Shown here: positions 1-31,840 of the stretch, in pieces | Layout: the number at the start of each line of letters is the position of its first letter | Numbering within the stretch: the first letter of the stretch is position 1 | Virus record (IMG/VR): IMGVR_UViG_3300018012_000099 | Source: a virus | Taxonomy: Duplodnaviria > Caudoviricetes | Length of the DNA: 64,000 bases | Direction: 5' to 3' (one strand) | Position numbers and translations under genes: made by a program | The notes under the pieces: model-generated | Told to the model about the DNA's origin: nothing | Seen by the model: only the letters and a program-made list of their open reading frames with translations | Databases searched by the model: none

Positions 1-551
1 CATGGTTCGAATTGTTTTTCTAAATGCTCTTTTAGTTCTTGAATAGAATAGGGAAGATAATCTAAACAGGAATATCCATTTTTAGATGAATCATTAGACT
101 TCAGATAAAAATTAATATTAGCCGAGACAGATGTCCTGATTCTAAAATTAGGATCATTAATGCGACGTTCTTTAGTATATTCGTTTTGATATTTTCTGAT
201 TTTATCCGCATTTTTAATGCGATATTCTTTATCCTGTTTTAGGATATCTTCTTTGTTTTCTTGGTAATATATTTTGTTATACTCTTGTCTTTCTTCTTTA
301 TGTTCCTGATAATACTCTTTTTGTTTTTCTAATTTTTCTTCTTTATTTTCTTCGTAGTGATCTTTTTTATAGGTTAAAATTTCTTCTTTATTTTCCTGAT
401 AATATGTTGCGTCATACTCTCGTTGATACTTTTTAATCTTGTCTTTGTTTTTCTCACGGTATTGGCGCATATATTCGGTGTTGCACTGCTTACATTTTCC
501 ACTCTTGCCGACATCATCCTTTTCAAGCCCGCACATACTACATTTCTTCAT
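1..551 (-). CDS. HNH-family endonuclease, 3'-truncated by the window edge (paralog of 2152..2742)
   Basis: Not in the ORF track. My translation from ATG at 551 (SD GGAG upstream) gives MKKCSMCGLEK...CKQC, then Lys/Glu/Tyr-rich repeats, then DPNFRIRTSVSANINFYLKSNDSSKNGYSCLDYLPYSIQELKEHLEKQFEPW. This aligns with NPYFKLRGHVSKYIAYYMKLNNSSKNNESCLKYLEYDIKDLKDHLEKQFEAW in 2152..2742. Confidence 0.8.
   Translation of the reverse strand, partial: MKKCSMCGLEKDDVGKSGKCKQCNTEYMRQYREKNKDKIKKYQREYDATYYQENKEEILTYKKDHYEENKEEKLEKQKEYYQEHKEERQEYNKIYYQENKEDILKQDKEYRIKNADKIRKYQNEYTKERRINDPNFRIRTSVSANINFYLKSNDSSKNGYSCLDYLPYSIQELKEHLEKQFEP
246..404 (-). repeat. 45-bp-period imperfect coding repeat, (Y/H)Y(Q/E)E(N/H)KE(E/D) x4, inside the HNH gene
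   Basis: Near-identical 24-mers start at 246, 291, 336 and 381, e.g. ttcttctttattttcctgataata and ttcttctttatgttcctgataata. Confidence 0.8.
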
Positions 552-601
552 GATTTCTCCTACCACGATCTATATCACTACTGGGAGAAGTTGAAATAAA
601 A

Positions 602-970
602 TTATTTAGGTTCTAACGGATTAGCTAAAACTCCTGAAACCGCCTCGGCTTCTATGCAAATGCCTTCTACAATAATCCAGTCGCCAGAAGTAAAGTTTTT
701 GGTTATTTCTTGATCATTAGCTAACCAAGCATTTGGTGCGCGCCCCACTTCAACATTATCTGTTTCAATGACTATCTGTAGGGGCAATTTTTGGGCTGCC
801 GGGTGGACATAGCTGTGTGAAAATAATCCTTCCATTTTTAATCGATCAAACATTATTCTGGACACATCCAACTTATGACCATTATAGGGACCGACGCCAG
901 CATAAGTAATAGATTGAATTTTGCCCACTAAAACATCACCCAGTAAGACTTTTATATTTATATATGTCAT
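602..970 (-). CDS. Divergent, internally deleted paralog of the tail tube protein
   Basis: SRIMFDRLKMEGLFSHSYVHPAAQKLPLQIVI aligns with tube QRVRFDRLRVAEAFSRGFVHVASQAYPFDIVI. VGKIQS matches VGAVQS, NAWL matches NVWI, and DWIIVEGICIEAEAV matches DWVITDTMTWEAETI. The start at ATG 970 is preferred over the track's 979. Confidence 0.75.
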   Translation of the reverse strand: MTYINIKVLLGDVLVGKIQSITYAGVGPYNGHKLDVSRIMFDRLKMEGLFSHSYVHPAAQKLPLQIVIETDNVEVGRAPNAWLANDQEITKNFTSGDWIIVEGICIEAEAVSGVLANPLEPK

Positions 971-1002
971 ATGAAACAATATATCAGAGACCAGCTAACT
1001 TC

Positions 1003-1554
1003 TCAAATACTTCTATCTGATTCAACAGCGCTCCGTGCTTCTTTCTCTCGGGCGCTTTCAATTGGTAAGGTGGTAAAGAGCTTGGTATCTCCCTCATCTC
1101 CGCCCCACAGCACCGCTTCCTGCACCATAAACTGCAAGGGCGTGTCCATCTTATAATCATCATATCCATGGGGAGAATAAGCCAAGGTAATATGGGGCTT
1201 GTATTCTTTGAAGGTCTGCTTAAAATCCACTTTAGCGGCTTGCAAGGCTTTGACCAATTTTTTATGCAATTGGTGCAATTCCTCCGACTTGACGGGGGCG
1301 ATGATGGGAACGGGATGATCGGGGCGAGGAGGAAAATGTGAGACGTGATCTGCTTTGACGGAGAAGGGCTCCGTCTCCGCCATAATTTCATAAGCCGCTT
1401 CGGTGGCTTTCAACATCTTCTTGATGGACCAGTTATCTTCAAACACCAATAAAGTAATATGATACTCCGAAGGTGTTTCTTTTTCACCCGGAACCTCCAA
1501 ATTACGAATTAATCTGCCCACCTCGTGGGGCACGCGAATTCCCAAAAAAGCCAT
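1003..1554 (-). CDS. 2H phosphoesterase (2'-5' RNA ligase / cyclic phosphodiesterase superfamily)
   Basis: Two HxT motifs, YHITLL and PHITLA, about 80 aa apart in a 183-aa protein. Confidence 0.85.
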   Translation of the reverse strand: MAFLGIRVPHEVGRLIRNLEVPGEKETPSEYHITLLVFEDNWSIKKMLKATEAAYEIMAETEPFSVKADHVSHFPPRPDHPVPIIAPVKSEELHQLHKKLVKALQAAKVDFKQTFKEYKPHITLAYSPHGYDDYKMDTPLQFMVQEAVLWGGDEGDTKLFTTLPIESAREKEARSAVESDRSI

Positions 1555-1603
1555 AGCTTAACCTCTATATCATATGGTAATATGACTATTTTCTCATTTC
1601 TAT

Positions 1604-2146
1604 ATGTCTTTCAAGAAACATGAGAAAATCCCACTCTCGGTGGCACGCAAATTACCCTATAAGTCACTGGCTCGCATGATTAAAAAGATGCGCGAGTACT
1701 TGAAGAAGGACCCAGTGGTGCAGGAAATGTTCAAGGACTATGGGGTGGAGATCGAAGAAATTGATTATATTCCTATGATGTTTGGAAATATTGATGTCTC
1801 GGCCAAGACGGATCATGGCGTCATTATCTTTAACTTTAAATTGCTGACCGATGGTGATTTTTTCGAAGATTTTTCCTACGGGGTGCATGAAATGACCCAC
1901 TGGCTGCAACAAACTACGGGTAATAAAGCGACTCGTAGTTCGGATGATGGTAACTATCTTAGAAATCCTTTTGAACAGGAAGGGTTTGCTAATCAGGTAG
2001 AATATATTGCAAATCAATTTGGCGATGGTAAGGCGGAAAAGTACGTGGACGATTTATTAGATCATCATGATGTAGATGGTAAAAAAGAAAAAGATGAATT
2101 AAAAGCTATCTTCCTTGACAAAGTGGCAGGAAAATATTCTTTCTGA
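1604..2146 (+). CDS. Putative zincin-like metallopeptidase
   Basis: GVHEMTHWLQQ (HExxH) with a downstream EQEGF as possible third ligand. Confidence 0.55.
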   Translation: MSFKKHEKIPLSVARKLPYKSLARMIKKMREYLKKDPVVQEMFKDYGVEIEEIDYIPMMFGNIDVSAKTDHGVIIFNFKLLTDGDFFEDFSYGVHEMTHWLQQTTGNKATRSSDDGNYLRNPFEQEGFANQVEYIANQFGDGKAEKYVDDLLDHHDVDGKKEKDELKAIFLDKVAGKYSF

Positions 2147-2151
2147 AAAAT

Positions 2152-2742
2152 TTAATTCTTATTACTATTTATTAGATTTTGTTTGGCGCTCAAAGGGCGG
2201 AGGTTATCAAGAGACCAACATTTCTTGAAGTTATCATCTTCCATGCTTGTGTACGGTAATTTGCTTTGTGGGATAATATGATCGATATTCCATGTCCAAG
2301 TAGATGGATCATTATCGTCCCAAGTTTGAGCACTATATTTGCCATAGTTGTCCCAGGTCATCCATGCTTCAAACTGTTTTTCTAAATGGTCTTTTAAATC
2401 TTTAATATCATATTCTAGATATTTGAGACATGATTCATTATTTTTGGAAGAATTATTAAGTTTCATATAGTATGCTATGTATTTGGATACATGCCCACGT
2501 AATTTGAAATATGGATTATTCCTTTTTTTACTGTGGTAATATCTGGCATTCTTTTCTTTTATTTTGTTTTTATTATTTTGCCTATAAATTTTTCCATCTT
2601 CGGCTAATTTTTCTTTGTTCTTTTGGTTGTATATTTTTCGATAAGTTTTTAGGAAAATTTTTCTGCAATCCTTGCATTGGTTGCGATTTTTTTCAAAGCA
2701 TGTTTCATCTTTGTAATTTTTACACATCGTACATTGTTTCAT
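2152..2742 (-). CDS. Free-standing HNH endonuclease
   Basis: N-terminal CxxC...CxxC (MKQCTMC...CKDC) and C-terminal WNIDHIIP...CWSLDNLRPLSAKQN. The likely start is ATG 2742, not 2823. It lies antisense between + strand genes. Confidence 0.8.
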   Translation of the reverse strand: MKQCTMCKNYKDETCFEKNRNQCKDCRKIFLKTYRKIYNQKNKEKLAEDGKIYRQNNKNKIKEKNARYYHSKKRNNPYFKLRGHVSKYIAYYMKLNNSSKNNESCLKYLEYDIKDLKDHLEKQFEAWMTWDNYGKYSAQTWDDNDPSTWTWNIDHIIPQSKLPYTSMEDDNFKKCWSLDNLRPLSAKQNLINSNKN

Positions 2743-2771
2743 GAATTTTATCGATAAATTGATATTGTGGT

Positions 2772-4760
2772 ATGGTAACTTATGCTGATCCAGTTCGAGT
2801 GGGGCTATCTCGCGTAGCATCAATGGGTGATGGTTACACTATTAATATATCATGGTTTCAGGCTTATTCCACGCTTCCTTCAAACAAAATAGCTTATCAT
2901 ATTTATTATGGTACGGATAACACTAAATTAATTCCAGATTCAGAATATCCAGACATATTTTCTGAAGGTGTCAAGCTGGTGGTGATTGATGGTTCCACCG
3001 AAGTTAATGTGATTGGATTAACTCCAGGTCAGGAATACTGGTTTTGTGTGCGACCGGTAGAGTATGATCCAACCATTTTTAATTTGTCAAATTTACCTAT
3101 TGCTCATGATAACGTGCGTTTTTATCCCAGTAGCTTGCTCCGTCAAAATATGACGGCTACCGATTTGATTGTGCCACTAATGGATGTGGAAGGATTTCCC
3201 AATATGGGAGTCGTGCAAGTAGGTATAGAACTAATTTTATATTTAGCGGTAGATGCGGTCAATAACAATTTGATTGTACCGGGCGGCACCTCTCCAATTA
3301 GTGGACATTTGGTATTACAATCTAACAATCAATACTATTTGCCAAACCCTAATAATACGGGACAGGGATCTTTAGGTTCTTTGACTTTGGTAGGTGGTGA
3401 CACTAATGGCACCTACAGTATTAGGTGCATCTTTGTGCAACGAGATGGTAGTGGTAATCCCATCTCCGGCACTGCTAAATTCGTGGTTATTAGTCCCCCA
3501 CCAGGCGATCCGGTGGATGGTTATGGCAACTACCCAGTTTGGGTGGCTAACGGTCCGATAGTTTCTGATGGTATCTTGAGTTTTGGTATTGTTGAAAATG
3601 ATGGATATACTTTTGTACCGGGCGATTCTTTTACCGTCCAAGTAGCCGGAGCACAACCAGGTCTGTCCAGCGGTCGTGGCTATGATAACACTCCGATTAC
3701 CTCTCACTCGGTTAGTGGTTTCGATGGCTACAATACCTGGAATCCTTTGGTTACTGTCTTTACTTTAACCGAGTCTCGCCTTTATGATCAGATGTATGTT
3801 TGCTTATCTCGTTTTGAATATCCTAACTTTCCTTTCACTATTATTGATGGTTATAGGCAGGTACCCGTCGATTATTTGAGCACAGATTTAGCTGCCGCTG
3901 ACGCGGCTAATGTTACTTTCCCGATATACGACTATGCGGGCTATCACCGTACTGATCCGGTACAATTGCTCAATGGTACTTGCGTAGGCAGTTACATCGG
4001 TGGAGAGATGGGTTGTATCGATGCTTACGGCAACTACAACATCTATCGTGGTTTCTCACTCCAGGATCAAAATACTCAGCGTCAAGACATTTTATTGTCC
4101 GTTACGGGGCAACCAGCTGTTCTAGTACAGAGAGTGCAGACGGGAGACGTATGCAGTTGTTACCTCTCCACTAGCGAATATCCTGACGACCGTTGCCCGT
4201 TCTGCTACGGCACCAAGTTTGTCTTTGGATACACCCAATATTTCAATCCGCGTCAGTCGGACGGACGCATCATGGTGCGTTTGGGACCAACTGCTGAAAA
4301 TCTAAAAATGCATGAAGGTGGTTTGGAATCTGAGTTCCCGCTAGATATTTGGACTCTCACGGTGCCTACCATCAAGACACGTGATTTCTTGATTTTGTTC
4401 GACCAGAACGATAACGAATCCTTCCGCTACGAAGTAGGGGACGTCATTCGTAATCAGACCATTTTAGGTCAAGATGGCGGTCAGCACTTGAAGACCTTCC
4501 GTATCCGTAAGACCGATCCGGCTTATCAAGTTAGGGTGTTCCGTAACACTTCCGATTTTCCAAATACCATCAATACTTCTTTGGGTATGGCTCCTCCTGC
4601 TATTCCGCCTCATAGCCACACCATCGTAGTAAATGAAAAGGTTTTGGCGGTCAGCCAAATTAATCAGACTACCGGTATCTCACAGGGACATAATCACCCA
4701 ATTACGGATGGGGTCGTTCAAACGGTGCTCGGGCATACACATACTATTATTCTCCCCTGA
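2772..4760 (+). CDS. Virion structural protein, probable neck/head-tail connector with N-terminal FN3-like domain
   Basis: FN3-like segment VIGLTPGQEYWFCVRPV, a middle domain shared with the sheath, CSC...RCPFCYGT motif and C-terminal HSH/HNH/HTH motifs. First gene of the structural block. The neck assignment is inferred from position and motif. Confidence 0.5.
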   Translation: MVTYADPVRVGLSRVASMGDGYTINISWFQAYSTLPSNKIAYHIYYGTDNTKLIPDSEYPDIFSEGVKLVVIDGSTEVNVIGLTPGQEYWFCVRPVEYDPTIFNLSNLPIAHDNVRFYPSSLLRQNMTATDLIVPLMDVEGFPNMGVVQVGIELILYLAVDAVNNNLIVPGGTSPISGHLVLQSNNQYYLPNPNNTGQGSLGSLTLVGGDTNGTYSIRCIFVQRDGSGNPISGTAKFVVISPPPGDPVDGYGNYPVWVANGPIVSDGILSFGIVENDGYTFVPGDSFTVQVAGAQPGLSSGRGYDNTPITSHSVSGFDGYNTWNPLVTVFTLTESRLYDQMYVCLSRFEYPNFPFTIIDGYRQVPVDYLSTDLAAADAANVTFPIYDYAGYHRTDPVQLLNGTCVGSYIGGEMGCIDAYGNYNIYRGFSLQDQNTQRQDILLSVTGQPAVLVQRVQTGDVCSCYLSTSEYPDDRCPFCYGTKFVFGYTQYFNPRQSDGRIMVRLGPTAENLKMHEGGLESEFPLDIWTLTVPTIKTRDFLILFDQNDNESFRYEVGDVIRNQTILGQDGGQHLKTFRIRKTDPAYQVRVFRNTSDFPNTINTSLGMAPPAIPPHSHTIVVNEKVLAVSQINQTTGISQGHNHPITDGVVQTVLGHTHTIILP

Positions 4761-4867
4761 TCTATGCATAGCTCTGGAAACCATTTAAGCGACAACTATC
4801 AGACAAATTGGGTTGAAATATAATTCGGTCGTCAAGATTATAAAGACTAATAAAAAGCCATAACATC

Positions 4868-6766
4868 ATGACGGACAACAGACAAAAACCAGCAGTTCCA
4901 AATTATGTGCCAGACGTAGGTCGTTTGGTCACGGATAGATTTGATTTTCAACAGCATGTTAATGGTACTGGTTTCCGTCACGTGGCTAATCAAATCGATA
5001 TGTCCCCATTAATCACTATTAGTGGTGAGCAGCCCACTAATGTGCAAGACGCTATTGCTTTACTGGCTGAAGCAGCATCCCCAGTTTTAAATCCAGCAAC
5101 TACAACTACTTTAGGTATTGTTCAATTATCTGGAGATATTGCTGGAACTGCTACTAATGTTAGGGTAGTCAATATTCAGGGACGACCGATTAGTACCTTA
5201 CCGCCGTCTACGGGTCAAGTATTGACTTGGCAAAGTGGCGGATTCTGGTCCCCACAAAATGTGAATAATGGGGCGGCAGGTGGCGACTTACGAGGCACCT
5301 ATCCTAATCCATTGGTAATAGCTTTGGATGGTTACAAGTTTAAAACTCCTACTAATCCACTCAATGGGCAAGTGCCCACTTGGGTGTCTGCGGATGGTTA
5401 TATCGAATGGAATTATACTGGACAAAATGTGGTCGTCTATCAACCCGGAGGTACCGCGGGAGGTAATGTGTATACCACTTTCGCGGGTGTGTATGCTTTT
5501 GCGCAAACTTTGGGCAGTGCACCAGTCACCATTTACTTGGACTCCACTCATAGTAGCACTTTCACTGTGCCAGCCGGCACCTATACTTGGGGCAATCAGC
5601 TATTGACCATCTTGGGATCCGGGGGTCCCGGACCTCCCATGCTGCAATTGCAAGCTGGCGTGGTGTGGAACGGCATTCTCTCTATGAATGTGGTAGGAGC
5701 CCAACTGACCAATGCTTCTACTAGTAGCACTCCCATCAGTTTCTCGGATGCTCTCAATCATACCGTACAAATTTTCTCTCATAGCTTTCTCAATGTGGAA
5801 GGGGGTTGTCAACCGCTGATGACCATTACCAATACCACTTCCGGACATTTATTTATTGAGTCGGATGGAGGTACCATTGGTGGTTTACCCGGAGGCGGTG
5901 CTCCCGTCATTACTGTCACGGGAGGTGTCAGTACTTTGACGCTAGTAATTGACGCCAACGCCTCTACTATCAGCGCTTCCTGTGTGTCTGCGGCGGTGGC
6001 AGGTAATGCACAAATCGTGTATGATGCCAATTCCAGTATATCTTTGCCACAGACTAATGTCACCTTGATTTTAGATGATATCGCCGCACAGGTCTCCTAT
6101 AATGATGGCTATGTCTCTCCCACTATCGGAGCGGTGACCGTGCAAGCTGCCATTGATTATCTCAAACAACATAGTGGAAGCGGAGGTACTATCGCCGGAG
6201 ATGTCACGGGGACGTTAGGATCCTCCACCGTAGTCAAACTACGAGGAAAAAATCTCTCCACCACTTTGTCTTCTCTTGGGGCTGCCCAAGATGGATATGC
6301 CCTCACCTGGGATAACACGGATGGCTATTGGTTTGCGGAATCACCTCCCGCCTATCAATGGGCGACTAATGCCTCACCCGTTACTTTATCAGATACCGCA
6401 GCACATATCATTACTAGCGTCACTATTGTACCTACCGTGACAGGACGATTGATTGCTTCCGCCACTGGTTATGTTAATAACTTGTCGGAAGCTGATACGG
6501 TGTCTTTGGGGATGTTTTACAGTATTGGTGCAGGCAATACTACTAATATTGCTCCCATTGGACTGTATACTATTCCACCCGCCATTAGTTTTACTTTTGC
6601 CGCTACCGTGGATTTACCTTTCTATATTATTTCTAACTTCCCCATCAATGAACCATGGGTGATCAATATTTGTGCCCAAGCCGGCACTGCTAATGATATT
6701 CAGTTCCCCGCTAGTGGATGTAATCTAGAAGTGGAAGAAAACCTACAGGCTAACTTATTGCCATAA
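4868..6766 (+). CDS. Tail fibre / fibre-like virion protein
   Basis: Three GD[ILV]xGT repeats typical of fibre shafts (GDIAGTATNVRVV, GDLRGTYPNPLVI, GDVTGTLGSSTVV). Gly/Thr/Ser-rich, with 5 DGY. Confidence 0.6.
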   Translation: MTDNRQKPAVPNYVPDVGRLVTDRFDFQQHVNGTGFRHVANQIDMSPLITISGEQPTNVQDAIALLAEAASPVLNPATTTTLGIVQLSGDIAGTATNVRVVNIQGRPISTLPPSTGQVLTWQSGGFWSPQNVNNGAAGGDLRGTYPNPLVIALDGYKFKTPTNPLNGQVPTWVSADGYIEWNYTGQNVVVYQPGGTAGGNVYTTFAGVYAFAQTLGSAPVTIYLDSTHSSTFTVPAGTYTWGNQLLTILGSGGPGPPMLQLQAGVVWNGILSMNVVGAQLTNASTSSTPISFSDALNHTVQIFSHSFLNVEGGCQPLMTITNTTSGHLFIESDGGTIGGLPGGGAPVITVTGGVSTLTLVIDANASTISASCVSAAVAGNAQIVYDANSSISLPQTNVTLILDDIAAQVSYNDGYVSPTIGAVTVQAAIDYLKQHSGSGGTIAGDVTGTLGSSTVVKLRGKNLSTTLSSLGAAQDGYALTWDNTDGYWFAESPPAYQWATNASPVTLSDTAAHIITSVTIVPTVTGRLIASATGYVNNLSEADTVSLGMFYSIGAGNTTNIAPIGLYTIPPAISFTFAATVDLPFYIISNFPINEPWVINICAQAGTANDIQFPASGCNLEVEENLQANLLP

Positions 6767-14349: not shown

Positions 14350-17187
14350 ATGGCTGACATACCCGGAGCAACTAATGCATTACCAGGACCGTTTACGCTC
14401 GTCCAGACATCGTCTGCGGCTGTATCTATTCCGGGCGGTTCTCGTGTAACTGCCATGATCGGTCAAGGTCAGACTAATGAGACCGTTGTGGCTCAAGCTC
14501 AAGGTGGCGGAGTTGATGGTTTGAACGCAACCTATACCTCTACTAGCGGTGCAGACGGTAGACATTTTACACTGTTACAAGCTCCAATCATCTCTAACAG
14601 AACTACTCTATTTAAAAACGGTATCCCCCTCGTCGGTATGGAGTCTACTATCACTGCAACTACCACTTTCAGTGATGCTTTTGATTATCTTATCGATGTC
14701 ACTACGGGTCATATCCTATTACAATCTGCCCACTTAGTAGATCAAGGTGGCGCTTTCTATGTTCCTCTTTCTACTAACGTTGGTTTGGGTACTATCAATG
14801 CTCTGACTCTAGTGGATGTTAATGCTCCACCAGAAACTTGGACCGTGCGCTGTATATCCGTTCAAAGAAATTCTATGAATCAACCAATCGGTGGTACTGC
14901 TACATTTATTGCCGTAGGTTCTGTTTCCGGTGCGCAGGTAGATGCTAATGGTAATCCAATCGTTTGGATTGCTGACGGCTATGTTGTTAGCAATGGTATT
15001 TTGAGCTTCAGCATCATTGAAACTCAAGTACTAAGCGTATATGTTTCTCCATTCGTTCCAGGTGACGCTTTCACTATCGAAGTGGCTAGCGGCGTGTTGA
15101 TTAAAAATGATAGTTTAACTGCTACCTATATTCCAGTAGCTAATATTAATAATCCTATTTTAACTCAAGGTCAAAATCAGGTTATTGCTCAATTTGGCAA
15201 TCCGAGCTTAGATAATAGTTTGTCTTTGGGTGGTCAACTGTTCTACGCCAACGGCGCTTCTAGTCTTATCTGTTTACAGGCCGCACCACCGCTACCTCGA
15301 CGAACTTCTTTCATTCTCTCTCATTCGGTTAATTCTGCCTCCACTAATGATGATGATTTCGTTTTCCCGTTACCTGTGGGTGTGGTTCCGGCGTTCAATG
15401 ACGATATCCACTTTTTCATTACTAACAATACTAATCAAGTAGAAACTCAGATTCTACCTAACAAACAGACATATTATACTTTAGGTACAGCGGGTAATCC
15501 AACCTTAGATCAATTTATCAAGGATAACGTACCCGCTCCTGGTGGATTTTCCTACTTCTATACCGTTATTCAAAGTTTCGAAACCTTGGTAACTGGTTTT
15601 GATGGTTATATTGGTAGAACTGGACCACAAACTAATCAGGGAGTTTTCTCGTCTTCTGTTACTTTTGACTCTACCTACATTGGTAAAGAAATTAGAATCA
15701 TTGACGCGCAGAATGTAGCTAACATTAATGCCTCAGCTACTGGCGGAAATGATAATCCAACTTTCACCGTCACTGGTGTTTTTGATGGTCAATTGTACTT
15801 CATGGGCAGCGTACCATTCCCAGATTTAACCAACGTAGCCGGTACCGAAGCTTTTGAGCTGATCGATCCATCTACTGATACAGTGGTTCCAGGCAGCCAA
15901 GCAACCCAAGGAACTGTTGTAGAAAATGTAGGCACTGGAACTGGTACTATTACCGATGCTGTGGTTAATTTTAACAGCATATCTGCTTTCGTAGCAAATC
16001 CAACTCACTATAAAGTACAAATCAACGGAGATATTAATAACCAGGGTTTGTATGATATTACTGGTTATAGTTCTGTAGGCAATGGTGTCATTTCTATTGC
16101 CAAGGCTTTGGTTAACGAACATAATGTACGTTATGAAATTATTGATCCTACTTTGGTGAGTAACTATATCGTTATTAATCATAACGTGGTACCAAATGGT
16201 TTCGGTTTGAGAGTTACTCTCGTTGATAATCGTGATGCTACTTTCTATGATGCTGGGTGGCTTAATGCTCTTGCTGCTTTAGAAACAATAGAATGCGATA
16301 TCTTAGTTCCATTGCCAAATCAAACTATCAGCGTTATCTTCCAGAACTGTGTCAATCACTGCATCGCTATGAGCAACATCGTCAACAAGAAAGAACGTGT
16401 GTTGTTCATCGGAGCTATCAATGGTTTGACCCCAGCTAACGTAACTGGACAACAACTAGCTGCCGTTGAAGACCTAGGACCACTAGAGGGTATTCCGGGT
16501 AGCAACCCAAGCTTGATTCTACAAGCTAACCCACAAGACTTGGCAAACTACTCAGTATCTGCCGCTTACGGATACACTTTCCGTGTTGTCTACTTCTATC
16601 CTGACCAAATTGTGGTCGCTGCTGGAGGTAACAACATTTTGGTGGATGGATTCTATATCGCTGCTGCCGCCGCGGGTTACGAATCTGCTGACGTTATTCT
16701 CCAAAATCCTCTAACTAACAAAACCATTTCTGGGTTCACTATCTTGAATAACAAGAAGTTCTCTACCCTGGTACTAGAACAATTAGCTGCTGCCGGTATT
16801 ACCACCTTGCAGCCAGTTGCCGGAGGTGGGAATGTGGTCTGGGGTATCACCACCAGTCAGTCTGGATTCCCAGAAGAACAAGAAATTTCCATCGTTTTTA
16901 TCAGAGACCGCGTAGCGAAGGTTTTGAGAGCCGGATTCCAAGGTTTCATTGGCACTCCACAGGATGTCAATACTGCCGCTGTACTCAACACCGAAGCAGT
17001 AGTTCTGTTGAACTCTCTAGTAGGTCAAGGTTTGATTACCGCATACAAGGACCTGGCAGTATCACAAGATACCGTAGACCCACGTCAATGGAACATCTCG
17101 GTGAGCGTCAGCCCAGCTTATCCAATTAATTGGATCTTTATCAAGGTTAACATTACCAACCTTAATCTAGGTGGTTCTGGCGGTTAA
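14350..17187 (+). CDS. Contractile tail sheath protein
   Basis: Sheath C-terminal signature EEQEISIVFIRDRVAKVLR...FIG...LITAYKDLAVSQDTVDPRQWNISVSVSPAYPINWIFIKV and N-terminal PGPFTLVQT. Followed by the tube gene. Confidence 0.9.
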   Translation: MADIPGATNALPGPFTLVQTSSAAVSIPGGSRVTAMIGQGQTNETVVAQAQGGGVDGLNATYTSTSGADGRHFTLLQAPIISNRTTLFKNGIPLVGMESTITATTTFSDAFDYLIDVTTGHILLQSAHLVDQGGAFYVPLSTNVGLGTINALTLVDVNAPPETWTVRCISVQRNSMNQPIGGTATFIAVGSVSGAQVDANGNPIVWIADGYVVSNGILSFSIIETQVLSVYVSPFVPGDAFTIEVASGVLIKNDSLTATYIPVANINNPILTQGQNQVIAQFGNPSLDNSLSLGGQLFYANGASSLICLQAAPPLPRRTSFILSHSVNSASTNDDDFVFPLPVGVVPAFNDDIHFFITNNTNQVETQILPNKQTYYTLGTAGNPTLDQFIKDNVPAPGGFSYFYTVIQSFETLVTGFDGYIGRTGPQTNQGVFSSSVTFDSTYIGKEIRIIDAQNVANINASATGGNDNPTFTVTGVFDGQLYFMGSVPFPDLTNVAGTEAFELIDPSTDTVVPGSQATQGTVVENVGTGTGTITDAVVNFNSISAFVANPTHYKVQINGDINNQGLYDITGYSSVGNGVISIAKALVNEHNVRYEIIDPTLVSNYIVINHNVVPNGFGLRVTLVDNRDATFYDAGWLNALAALETIECDILVPLPNQTISVIFQNCVNHCIAMSNIVNKKERVLFIGAINGLTPANVTGQQLAAVEDLGPLEGIPGSNPSLILQANPQDLANYSVSAAYGYTFRVVYFYPDQIVVAAGGNNILVDGFYIAAAAAGYESADVILQNPLTNKTISGFTILNNKKFSTLVLEQLAAAGITTLQPVAGGGNVVWGITTSQSGFPEEQEISIVFIRDRVAKVLRAGFQGFIGTPQDVNTAAVLNTEAVVLLNSLVGQGLITAYKDLAVSQDTVDPRQWNISVSVSPAYPINWIFIKVNITNLNLGGSGG

Positions 17188-17213: not shown

Positions 17214-17885
17214 ATGGCTCAAGCACCCAATACAAATTCGACACTTTCTTTTCCGGGCGGTCAGAATAAGACCTCCACGGCTATATCTACTAACATTATC
17301 ATTACTGTTAGAAACTCTACGGGAGTAAATATTCCCGTGGGAGCCGTTCAATCTATGGCTATCTCTGAGAAAAGACCTATCAAGATGGTTGATGAAGTTG
17401 GAACCGATGGTCACATCGATTCTGTGCCAAATCAATCTACTAATATTACTGGTTCTTGTCAACGTGTACGTTTCGACCGATTGAGAGTGGCAGAAGCCTT
17501 CAGCCGTGGATTTGTTCACGTAGCTTCTCAAGCTTACCCTTTCGACATCGTAATTTTTGACAAGCAAAAGTTAGCACAAGGTTTACAGATTTCTACCGTT
17601 ATCAAGAACGTGTGGATTTCTGGTATTGATTATACTTATCAAGTTAGCGACTGGGTTATTACCGATACTATGACTTGGGAAGCGGAAACTATCTTCTCTA
17701 TTCTTAACAACGGATCTTCTACTCCAGTTGCTCAAGGTGGCGAACTTGGTATCCCATTCAGCAATATTCCAATCGAACGTCAGACAGACACCGGCACCAA
17801 CGGTCGTCGTGGTTCTTTGGATGCTCCGGGTCTCATAGATCTCGGATCTGCCGCATATACCCCTCCTGGAACTGCAATCTTCTAA
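17214..17885 (+). CDS. Tail tube protein
   Basis: Directly after the sheath. VGAVQSMAISEKRPIKMVDEVG...IKNVWISGIDYTYQ...TWEAE fits the myophage tube fold. SD AGGGAG. Confidence 0.85.
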   Translation: MAQAPNTNSTLSFPGGQNKTSTAISTNIIITVRNSTGVNIPVGAVQSMAISEKRPIKMVDEVGTDGHIDSVPNQSTNITGSCQRVRFDRLRVAEAFSRGFVHVASQAYPFDIVIFDKQKLAQGLQISTVIKNVWISGIDYTYQVSDWVITDTMTWEAETIFSILNNGSSTPVAQGGELGIPFSNIPIERQTDTGTNGRRGSLDAPGLIDLGSAAYTPPGTAIF

Positions 17886-29661: not shown

Positions 29662-29680
29662 GCCGATATATAGATAGTTA

Positions 29681-31840
29681 ATGTCACCGTGTAGTCCTAC
29701 AGATGTCTCTTTTCCATCACCCACTGTTCCAAGTGGTCCTCCCATTCCGGGGGTAGGAATACCATTTGCTTTAAAACTTCCGAATATCTCACCATTTCCC
29801 CAAGGTTTCCCAGAAGATTTATTAGAGCTATTTGATAAATTACAGTTAGTTATACCTCCGGGCATATTAAAACCAACTTTATTTCCCAATTTTTCCAAAG
29901 ATGTGTTTGATGGCATATTGAGCATGTTAGATCAATTTATGCCATTCTTAACTCTATATAAATTCTTTTTGCCGGTGCTTAATCTCATCATTTGTATTAT
30001 CGAGGTTTTGTGCGCCCTGATGAACCCTTTTGCGTTGATTTCAGCTATCAATAGATTATTTAGTCAGTGCATTCCAGAATTCTTGAACCTATTTCCCATT
30101 TTTGCTTTGATTATTATGATAATTTCATTACTATTACTTTTGTTAGCCCTAATTGAATACATCATCGCCCAAATATTAAAACTTATTAATGACATTTTAC
30201 GTAATCTCAATGCCCTAATAAAATCATTCCAAGATGCTGACGCTAATGCTGTTTTAGCTATTGCTAACAAGTTAGGTGCTCTACTATGTGTGTTCCAAAA
30301 CCTTTTTGTTCTGCTCTCTATTTTCAATATCATTATTGAAATCATTAGAGATATGCTGAGATTAGCCTTCGCTATTCCTCCATGTGAGGGGTCCTCTAGT
30401 AGTGATATTAATAGTTGTTGTTCTCCACTAACTTGCCCAACTATTGTACAAGGAAATTATACTAGAACAACTGGTACTCTACAATATTTACCAGAAGTGG
30501 GTTTACAAACCAGTATTAATTCTTTTTTTGGACCCACTACTACTGATTTGAGACATGAAACATGGCAATTATATGATCCCTCTCAAACTCAATCACAAGC
30601 CTTTTCTAATATTTACAATGCTTCTGATATCACCAACACAACTAACAAGCCAGTATTTTTTCCTACAGATGCTAATTATACTGCTACTACTAATCCAAAT
30701 CAAGCAGCATATACAGTAAATTTAAGAGTATTTTATAATCCTATTAATTGGGGTCGTACCGGTATTGCGCGTTTCATTCGTTTTAATAATTGTATTATGT
30801 TAGCAGTTCCAACTCCTAATTTGGTTAATTATAATAATTTAAATATCACAGAAAATACTGGCGTTGTTTATCTGGCTGGAGGAGCGGGTTTTGAAGATGA
30901 TGACATAACTGTGCTGACTGGATTTTCTTCTGATGGTATTACCCCCGTTTCTAGTCAAGCTACACTTAATAATTTTCTTCATAGACCACAAACCGTTATT
31001 ATAGTGCCCACCTCTAATGTTTTACCGAATGATGGTTATACATTTTCTAATATTACCTATACTTTCCAACCTAATATGCAAGTTTTATTTAACAAGCAGT
31101 TAGTTACATTAGGGTGTGAACCCAGTGTAGCTCTTAATAGGGCTTTCGTTAATACTGTTATGTTTGGTAATGTGGGGACCCAAACTGTGGCTCTCAATAA
31201 TCTTATCAATAACATTAATGGTCAGGTGTTTCCAGATCCGAATGCCGCTCAACAATGTTTGACTGCTGCCCTTTCTGCTCTGAGAAGCAATCTTTCAGTA
31301 GAGGGTGTCGCAGCTTTTCAAGCTACCGCCACTACTTGTTTGAATAATTTAGCCAATGATACCAGCTCTGCGTTAACTAGTATGGTAGGTATTGGGTTTA
31401 ATGCTTGTCAAAGTACTTTATCACGTGAGCCTACTATCCAGTTTACCTCCGAAACTATTACGGTGACGGTTAATCTTAATGAGAATAATGGATTACCATT
31501 GACACAAGGTATGCCAATTAGTGTGGGTAATGAAATTGCGACTCATATTACTTCGCATATCACTTTTGGCAATATATCTAATTTTACTTATGACGGATAT
31601 CAAGCATTTACCGCTCAGATTTCTAGTCCAACACCGGGTAACGGTCAGATTATGGTAGCATTTGATAATCAAATTTTGTGTACCAACACCCTTTCGACGG
31701 ACCCAACTGTGCCACCAGTCCATACATTACAGACTTTAGACTATCAATTTGTTTATACTCCTTTGGGATCTGTGGGTGGTGATGGTCAGCCACGCAGAGA
31801 TGCGGGCGATGTTAGCAGAAGCGGTAAGGATAATATCTAA
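29681..31840 (+). CDS. Hypothetical virion protein with long hydrophobic helices
   Basis: IFALIIMIISLLLLLLALIEYIIAQIL and other apolar helices, Cys clusters and 2 DGY. Lies within the baseplate block. Confidence 0.55.
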   Translation: MSPCSPTDVSFPSPTVPSGPPIPGVGIPFALKLPNISPFPQGFPEDLLELFDKLQLVIPPGILKPTLFPNFSKDVFDGILSMLDQFMPFLTLYKFFLPVLNLIICIIEVLCALMNPFALISAINRLFSQCIPEFLNLFPIFALIIMIISLLLLLLALIEYIIAQILKLINDILRNLNALIKSFQDADANAVLAIANKLGALLCVFQNLFVLLSIFNIIIEIIRDMLRLAFAIPPCEGSSSSDINSCCSPLTCPTIVQGNYTRTTGTLQYLPEVGLQTSINSFFGPTTTDLRHETWQLYDPSQTQSQAFSNIYNASDITNTTNKPVFFPTDANYTATTNPNQAAYTVNLRVFYNPINWGRTGIARFIRFNNCIMLAVPTPNLVNYNNLNITENTGVVYLAGGAGFEDDDITVLTGFSSDGITPVSSQATLNNFLHRPQTVIIVPTSNVLPNDGYTFSNITYTFQPNMQVLFNKQLVTLGCEPSVALNRAFVNTVMFGNVGTQTVALNNLINNINGQVFPDPNAAQQCLTAALSALRSNLSVEGVAAFQATATTCLNNLANDTSSALTSMVGIGFNACQSTLSREPTIQFTSETITVTVNLNENNGLPLTQGMPISVGNEIATHITSHITFGNISNFTYDGYQAFTAQISSPTPGNGQIMVAFDNQILCTNTLSTDPTVPPVHTLQTLDYQFVYTPLGSVGGDGQPRRDAGDVSRSGKDNI

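Follow-up and report, generated by a model that had tools for sequence, protein, structure and literature searches.

A truncated tail tube paralog in an antisense accessory slot of a giant-phage lineage

Background

Proteins with the tail tube fold are already known as parts of phage tails, as parts of type VI secretion systems (T6SS) and as triggers of bacterial immunity. The hairpin of the tube protein forms the interface between stacked rings, and the same hairpin triggers Avs16 (PMC13581612); the bacterial DSR2 is triggered by the monomeric core domain of the tube (PMC10981675). Proteins acting against the tails of other phages have been described as well, namely the Tai (tail assembly inhibition) systems found in prophages, PICIs and P4-like satellites (PMC11364771). 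In the portion of that source used here, taiEcA of phi80 lies antisense in the structural array and encodes a small accessory protein that blocks the tail assembly of other phages; TaiEcA targets the central tail fibre protein. Some Tai systems have a known counter-defence partner, and the same portion contains nothing on a Tai protein that copies a part of the tail.

Here we describe a short gene that may bring these two subjects together. It lies near one end of a stretch of 64,000 nucleotides (hereafter, the window) from the IMG/VR virus record IMGVR_UViG_3300018012_000099. The features needed for the argument are the following:

3..566, minus strand: zinc-ribbon/HNH-like gene downstream of P0001, cut by the window edge (ORF list)
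602..970, minus strand: truncated tail tube paralog P0001, 122 aa, of the bare-core "type A" (ORF, hhalign with the tube family, AF2 model)
978..1006, minus strand: promoter-like element, TTGAGA (1006-1001), a 17-nt spacer and a TG-extended TATATT ending at 978 (sigma-70-like match)
1003..1554, minus strand: 2H (LigT-type) phosphoesterase, 183 aa, upstream of P0001 (Pfam 2_5_RNA_ligase2, E 1.6e-15)
1604..2146, plus strand: HExxH-motif protein, 180 aa, right border of the slot (69-82% identical across related phages)
2152..2823, minus strand: second antisense zinc-ribbon/HNH-like gene, 196 aa from an ATG at 2742 (ORF list, locus L001)
14350..17187, plus strand: tail sheath protein, 945 aa (a weak Phage_sheath_1C match, E 6.4e-4, residues 848-936)
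17214..17885, plus strand: tail tube protein P0002, 223 aa, full-length paralog of P0001 (Foldseek match to the phage 812 tube)

Results

Kinship with the tail tube

The frame of P0001 runs from an ATG at 970 to a stop codon at 602-604 (122 codons); a TTG three codons upstream of the ATG is a possible alternative start, and the starts of relatives align with the ATG. The protein occurs, letter for letter, on 22 metagenome contigs, the longest of 245 kb, and the DNA of the gene is identical in all ten contigs compared, leaving no within-population signal; the runs listed for this stretch are wetland DNA metagenomes, with no RNA run among them.

P0002 is the tail tube of a giant-phage lineage, because its gene lies directly 3' of the 945-aa sheath gene, because its model matches solved tubes, and because more than 1,250 homologs of 210-240 aa are found, on contigs of up to 491 kb. 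The AF2 model of P0002 (pLDDT 70) matches the phage 812 tube in Foldseek (E 1.8e-8, TM 0.75 by target) and then the monocin, PVC and AFP tubes, and some members of its family are precomputed as Pfam PF26461 (Phi812_tail_tube).

BLASTP aligns P0001 with P0002 at 31% identity over 87 aa (E 8e-12). When the alignments of the short family and of the tube family are compared by hhalign, the probability is 100 and the E-value 5.5e-41, residues 3-119 of P0001 being paired with residues 25-169 of the tube; the original prediction, that the short protein aligns with the tube along its length, thus stands. The A1 profile of the short family matches the tubes of related phages at E about 1e-30, and the motifs GAIQS, RxRFD, FxRGxxH, QxxPxxI, NxW and EAE are common to the P0001 family and the tube. 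Judged from these homologies, P0001 is a true paralog of the tail tube of its own phage, and we have little doubt that it is to be identified as an optional truncated tube paralog.

The AF2 model of P0001, built with 50 relatives as input, has the tube/Hcp beta-barrel fold (pLDDT 91, pTM 0.83), so that the tube fold is indeed present. In VIA the matches comprise the SPR, Milano and diffocin tubes at Z 6.4-6.8, the SPR tube in the DSR2 complex being at the top (Z 6.8), and against the tail tube clusters of the ESM Atlas, those of T4 gp19 type and Phi812 type included, TM is 0.63-0.64. The best Foldseek matches are the Hcp chains 8gra and 7yw0 (E 4e-3 to 9e-3, TM 0.45-0.47) and the T6SS_HCP cluster of the Atlas gives TM 0.49; these Hcp matches are weaker than those to phage tubes. 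The fold matches further include Hcp, AFP/PVC cap and terminator entries and parts of the Mu baseplate, and split-barrel flavin reductases also match the fold at Z 5-6. Taken alone, these fold scores are middling, and it is by sequence homology that we regard the kinship with the tube as settled.

Among viral structures in BFVD the best match to P0001 is Gp179 of Bacillus phage G (E 1.1e-4), and the fourth-best is Gp180; these two (G3MBP5 and G3MBP6, of 242 and 188 aa) are adjacent tube-fold proteins. This fits a phage-G-like lineage, in which duplication of the tube gene may be common.

Searches of other kinds gave little. P0001 has nothing significant in Pfam, PHROGs, NCBIfam and PADLOC (PADLOC-DB 2023); neither a Pfam T6SS_HCP match nor a T6SS gene neighbourhood was found for it, the adjoining genes being phage genes. 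The ESM Atlas entry of its sequence is a poor model (pLDDT 0.46), and the feature search gave no match. Among GenBank phages, tblastn with P0001 and with P0002 found no match; megablast with window positions 1-5000 found none either.

What has been trimmed from the tube and what is retained

By hhalign, P0001 differs from the tube by a single internal deletion of ~19 residues, which falls inside the long hairpin (about residues 45 to 86 in the tube model). The spacing between the IQS and RxRFD motifs is 36 residues in the tube, 17 in P0001 and about 20 as the median of the short family, and E61, G63, D65 and P72, invariant residues of the hairpin tip in the tube family, lie within the deleted part. 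The hairpin is thus not intact, and the proposal that a hairpin segment had been exchanged for a much shorter one (17 residues against 36 between these motifs) is correct. To say that the beta-hairpin is lacking goes further than the model does: the hairpin is shortened by about half and not lost, since strands 13-26 and 32-42 remain paired, and as modelled its proximal half is kept and its distal half is gone. The terminal arms are both missing, as had been claimed, residues 1-24 (the 24-residue N arm) and 170-223 (the 54-residue C tail) of the tube having no counterpart in P0001.

The beta-barrel core is retained in P0001, along with most polar and aromatic residues that tubes conserve. The residues kept are G16/G43, Q19/Q46, R38/R84, D42/D88, F50/F96, H56/H102, Q60/Q106, P63/P109, I66/I112, N80/N132, W82/W134 and E109/E158 (short protein/tube), together with tube R86, and in the joint alignment those kept in the short family are near-invariant in tubes. 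There is one systematic switch: the aspartate D111, present in 100% of tubes, is glutamine in 66% of the short forms. From the sequence we infer that P0001 is polymerisation-incompetent. Its small size alone proves nothing in this respect, because tube proteins of 115-130 aa exist (the Mu tube, of 117 aa, and clusters of tail tube proteins of 126-129 aa).

A diverse family of short relatives

An exhaustive profile-free search with P0001 found 60 cluster representatives at E<=1e-3, 12 of them at E<=1e-10; a word-index search had matched P0001 itself alone. The term "orphan", which the original prediction had used, is therefore right within the phage's own genome and wrong beyond it, the gene being conserved among 60 relatives that retain most of the core residues. 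Most of the short relatives are 110-145 aa long and most align over their full length. In a tree of 52 short and 44 tube sequences, a single branch (SH-aLRT 84) divides short forms from tubes; the latter cluster in a tight clade, and the branches of the short forms are far longer (typical ends 0.4-1.0 against 0.02-0.3), with the P0001 copy and those of phages G006 and G007 in different subclades.

The short forms are of several kinds. About 35 representatives are bare acidic cores like P0001, and about 25 carry a basic amphipathic N-terminal helix (of the type MTIRNLFNKLxxFFKPKP) followed by a proline-rich linker, with a pI of about 9. P0129 begins with a twin-arginine (Tat) signal (TRRNFISGLL... 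AEA), P0142 and P0161 have a hydrophobic N-terminal signal of Sec type followed by two cores in tandem, and a few members are fused to other N- or C-terminal segments. In a different group of large phages, the helix- and signal-bearing forms are encoded upstream of a phage EF-Ts gene. These EF-Ts-linked loci, with helix-bearing or signal-bearing tandem forms, are L051 (6279-7120), L052, L053, L092 and L094-L096, and in such phages a conserved ORF of 134-137 aa comes after the helix-bearing form. Altogether, the short proteins form an accessory family of phage-G-like giant phages that is rare, diverse and quick to evolve. We found no description of truncated tube paralogs like P0001 in the open-access papers searched.

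The antisense slot

The gene for P0001 lies where the original prediction had placed it, outside the tail operon and on the opposite strand, 602..970 (-) against 17214..17885 (+), 16 kb from the tube gene. The slot that contains it is bordered by two genes on the plus strand: that of a 298-aa protein (p298), just outside the window and seen in L001, and that of the 180-aa HExxH protein, which opens a plus-strand run continuing with proteins of 662 aa, 632 aa (fibre-like), 160 aa and 1936 aa, the sheath and the tube. Within the slot, the 2H phosphoesterase, P0001 and a zinc-ribbon/HNH-like gene are all on the minus strand; the cassette thus occupies an antisense accessory position in a late structural array, with p298 and the HExxH and 662-aa genes on the plus strand. 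Placement of the tube type, directly after the sheath gene and in every relative, is not that of the P0001 gene.

Several of these neighbours merit a remark of their own. The 180-aa protein (1604-2146) has the motif HEMTH and no match in Pfam or NCBIfam; possibly it is metallopeptidase-like, a small protein belonging to the virion module. The 662-aa protein (2772-4760) and the sheath (14350-17187) have a domain of ~127 aa in common, and homologs of the former in related phages are 34-45% identical to the window sheath over such a ~127-aa stretch. The zinc-ribbon/HNH-like gene at 3..566 encodes 257 aa in full (L001) and is a paralog of the gene at 2152..2823. With their lysine-rich repeats, the two bracket the cassette and the HExxH gene, and they were matched only in L072 and L088 among the slots compared; the pair may be homing endonucleases that move the neighbouring genes between co-infecting phages.

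The bare-core type occupies this same slot in nine of nine phages: the window phage and those of G006, G007, L012, L088, L089/L090, L091, L148 and L149. The gene next to it raises the question of a partnership. The 2H phosphoesterase, for which matches to Acb1 and TIGR02258 both fall below cutoff, could, from its sequence, serve in RNA repair or cleave cyclic-nucleotide signals, and, being found antisense in 22 of 30 related slots, it is a common accessory gene of the lineage. In type VI secretion, Hcp rings are known to carry effectors. One might then imagine P0001 as an Hcp-like carrier or partner of the 2H enzyme, for example stabilising it or loading it for ejection, given that six of the nine phages have the short gene 3' of the 2H gene and on its strand (L148 with a 96-aa ORF in between, the other five directly). 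However, about 20 of the 30 slots contain the 2H gene and no short gene, the remaining three phages (L012, L089 and L149) have the short gene and no 2H gene, and a promoter-like motif of its own precedes the short gene. Since the slot table shows the two genes to occur independently, we abandoned the idea of a tie between the short protein and the 2H phosphoesterase, and we consider a carrier role very improbable.

The element before the start codon

The promoter-like element ends 7 nt before the ATG of P0001 and, with its TG, is the best sigma-70-like match in window positions 1..3000 (10/12). The original prediction had noted an upstream element of this gene's own. The element is there, TGATATATT at 978-986, and its position is kept: eight of the nine divergent family loci compared have GATATAT(T/A) at a distance of 7-8 nt from the ATG, and the ninth (L051) has a one-base variant, AGTTATATT; its number in the window is not above chance, with four occurrences of TGATATATT against 1.6 expected and 14 of 100 shuffles reaching four. 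It is because of this fixed position before the ATG, and not because of the count in the window, that we find the motif credible. A Shine-Dalgarno sequence is absent at all nine family loci compared, that of P0001 included, and a leaderless mRNA is possible, since the spacing would put the start of the transcript at or beside the ATG.

Other genes, in the window and in L088, also have GATATAT(A/T) at 3-8 nt from their ATG and no Shine-Dalgarno sequence; examples are the 719-aa gene at 29681 (motif region 29665-29683) and the genes for 261 aa and 651 aa in L088 (8710-8717 and 10620-10627). This suggests a type of phage promoter that gives leaderless or near-leaderless mRNAs. As GATATA-type motifs precede structural genes too, the motif marks a separate start point and not a temporal class.

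Rate of change

Where the tubes of two phages are 67-73% identical, identity between their short paralogs is only 30-38%; in the same comparisons it is 69-76% for the HExxH proteins, 66-69% for the 662-aa proteins and 47-55% for the 2H enzymes. For G006 against G007, dN is 0.33 for the short gene and 0.18 for the tube, and for the window against G007 it is 0.64 and 0.19. The short protein changes 2-3 times faster than the tube. Synonymous sites are saturated, which makes dN/dS unreliable, and we have used only relative dN and the comparison of pN with pS, in which pN of the short gene is below pS. By these measures the short gene is constrained and yet the fastest-changing of its neighbourhood. 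Alternatively, different old alleles may have been swapped into the slot, the window copy and the G006/G007 copies being in different subclades.

One could object that a copy with 31% identity to the tube, with segments lost and rarely present, is simply a decaying duplicate without function. We think that this is most improbable. A dead duplicate should not have open frames in at least 60 diverged relatives, a confident predicted fold with conserved core residues, pN below pS and a conserved upstream motif, nor should its DNA be identical in the ten contigs compared and its protein on 22 contigs.

Distribution among relatives

The relatives counted here were fetched through the tube and the HExxH neighbour, from IMG/VR and metagenome collections that overlap. 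In 30 IMG/VR slots fetched through the HExxH gene, the 2H gene is present in 22 and the short gene in two. In 51 metagenome loci the short gene is firm in one (the contig of G006), with one further weak and truncated match. In related giant-phage IMG/VR records, 2/15 have the short gene and 13/15 the tube only. Five records of 92-100% completeness are without the short gene, one of them showing a weak fragment with stop codons.

A weak match to the short profile (E 6.5e-4) with two internal stop codons is found at G012:C1:358890-359039, in the record behind L071 and far from the tube; this could represent a decayed copy, in a genome that is complete at 447 kb. The records behind L036, L037, L070 and L071 (210-481 kb) are labelled "provirus" in IMG/VR, and three of the four, of 433-481 kb, are estimated to be 97-100% complete. 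Should these labels hold, part of this giant-phage lineage may be temperate, a point that would bear on any role in exclusion.

The distribution bears directly on whether P0001 serves the tail of its own phage. The original prediction had offered a tail cap or a chaperone for the tube among its possibilities, and this fits poorly with a gene that is absent from five near-complete relatives and from most slots. An essential tail role is unlikely, because most relatives, near-complete genomes included, keep the tail genes without the short gene. A milder version would make P0001 an optional part of the virion or of its assembly, either as a single non-stacking ring (an adaptor, plug or terminator-like ring) or as a helper that holds subunits until the baseplate is ready. 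It is true that non-polymerising tube-fold rings are normal parts of tails, that tube terminators, caps and baseplate hub domains are among the structural matches, that the gene lies within the structural region and keeps core residues common to the tube, and that its upstream motif resembles those before structural genes such as the 719-aa gene at 29681. Against this, five near-complete relatives and most of the sampled slots lack the short gene although the tail genes are conserved; the gene runs opposite to the structural genes; none of its structural neighbours changes nearly as fast; and relatives of it carry export signals. We consider this version unlikely.

Discussion

What, then, would such a protein do? 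We tentatively favour, with real doubts, the reading that P0001 is a non-stacking mimic of the tube that blocks the tubes of other phages. P0001 would not be a building block of the tail; it would dock on a tube subunit or ring through the core surface that it has retained and could then not carry the next ring, so that, as a cap or as a subunit, it would be a dead end for the tubes of phages that compete or superinfect. The outcome would be tail interference or exclusion, similar to the Tai systems in logic and gene layout, and variants that carry a Tat or Sec signal or a helix of membrane type might play the same part in the envelope, at the point where tails come in. We favour this mimic because the core residues of the tube type are kept and exactly the stacking parts are lost, and because of the taiEcA-like antisense layout and the sister forms with export or membrane features. 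Interference with other phages is plausible on what the genomes tell us, and it gains indirect support from the antisense position in the structural array, the fast evolution and the relatives with export signals. P0001 itself has no export signal, and could therefore act only in the cytoplasm.

There are arguments against such a mimic. The phage's own conserved tube would be exposed to the poison, unless timing or specificity protects it; rapid change is odd for a protein that has to fit a slowly changing tube; and tubes of similar size (that of Mu, 117 aa, and the 126-129-aa clusters) polymerise normally. A complex prediction of the tube with the short paralog gave a score of 0.01, in a run without controls, and tells in neither direction on binding.

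The known immune sensors of tube proteins suggest another use for a soluble core that does not assemble: it could occupy or mislead host sensors of the tube, or mask the tube monomer until assembly, as an anti-defence decoy or shield. This has its attractions, as DSR2 reads the monomeric tube core (PMC10981675) and Avs16 the tube hairpin (PMC13581612), as the best structural matches of P0001 include the SPR tube bound to DSR2 (Z 6.8), and as P0001 is predicted to be cytoplasmic, is rare and fast-evolving, and sits in a variable slot often shared with a 2H phosphoesterase of faint Acb1 similarity. However, the match to the DSR2 complex reflects the shared fold only, and one would expect a sensor to be triggered by any mimic bound to it, unless the mimic lacks the activating part; the hairpin read by Avs16 is the very part deleted in P0001. 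Exported relatives make no sense against cytoplasmic sensors, no defence-related family was matched (PADLOC-DB 2023), and the 2H gene and the short gene occur independently. We therefore regard a decoy as improbable for P0001.

Returning to the non-stacking mimic, it can be placed within a wider proposal for the whole family, to which we give slightly less than an even chance: that giant phages use trimmed copies of the tube as weapons or shields, in the cytoplasm, the membrane or the periplasm, to cap or jam the tubes of rivals or to blind host sensors. If tail interference or an immune decoy is true, this would be a simple case in which a virus has turned a structural protein into a competitive tool, and would point to a class of conflict proteins made by trimming a structural protein of the virion. 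If the optional virion ring is true instead, tail architecture would vary within one phage lineage. P0001 would in addition be a ready-made probe for ring stacking, with the stacking parts removed by nature.

Comparison with known systems

The closest relative is the tube of giant phages itself (the P0002 family, the phage 812 tube, Gp179/Gp180 of phage G), which P0001 resembles in core homology, fold and motifs. In contrast to the P0002-family tube, P0001 is without the distal hairpin tip, the N arm and the C tail, and D111 is mostly glutamine in the short forms; the short gene lies apart from the sheath gene and in antisense orientation, it is an optional and rare gene, and the rate of change of its protein is 2-3 times higher.

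Non-polymerising rings of the tube fold (terminators, caps, hub domains and Hcp) have the same beta-barrel and, with 115-150 aa, are of a size like that of P0001. They are, however, conserved core parts encoded in the tail or T6SS cluster, whereas the short gene is optional and outside the tail operon, and some of its relatives have export signals. Among the triggers of tube-sensing immunity (the SPR tube for DSR2, the hairpin for Avs16), P0001 is like the SPR tube in fold only, and the hairpin that Avs16 reads (PMC13581612) is deleted in it.

The likeness to Tai systems is of another kind, as the comparison is one of layout and logic: a small and variable accessory gene, in reverse orientation, inside a late structural array. 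In the portion of PMC11364771 used here, Tai systems act on the formation of the tails of other phages, which P0001 would do by analogy. Set beside tail parts, T6SS parts and immunity triggers, an optional and fast-changing trimmed copy of the tube, in a swap-prone antisense slot and with sister forms bearing export signals, is something else.
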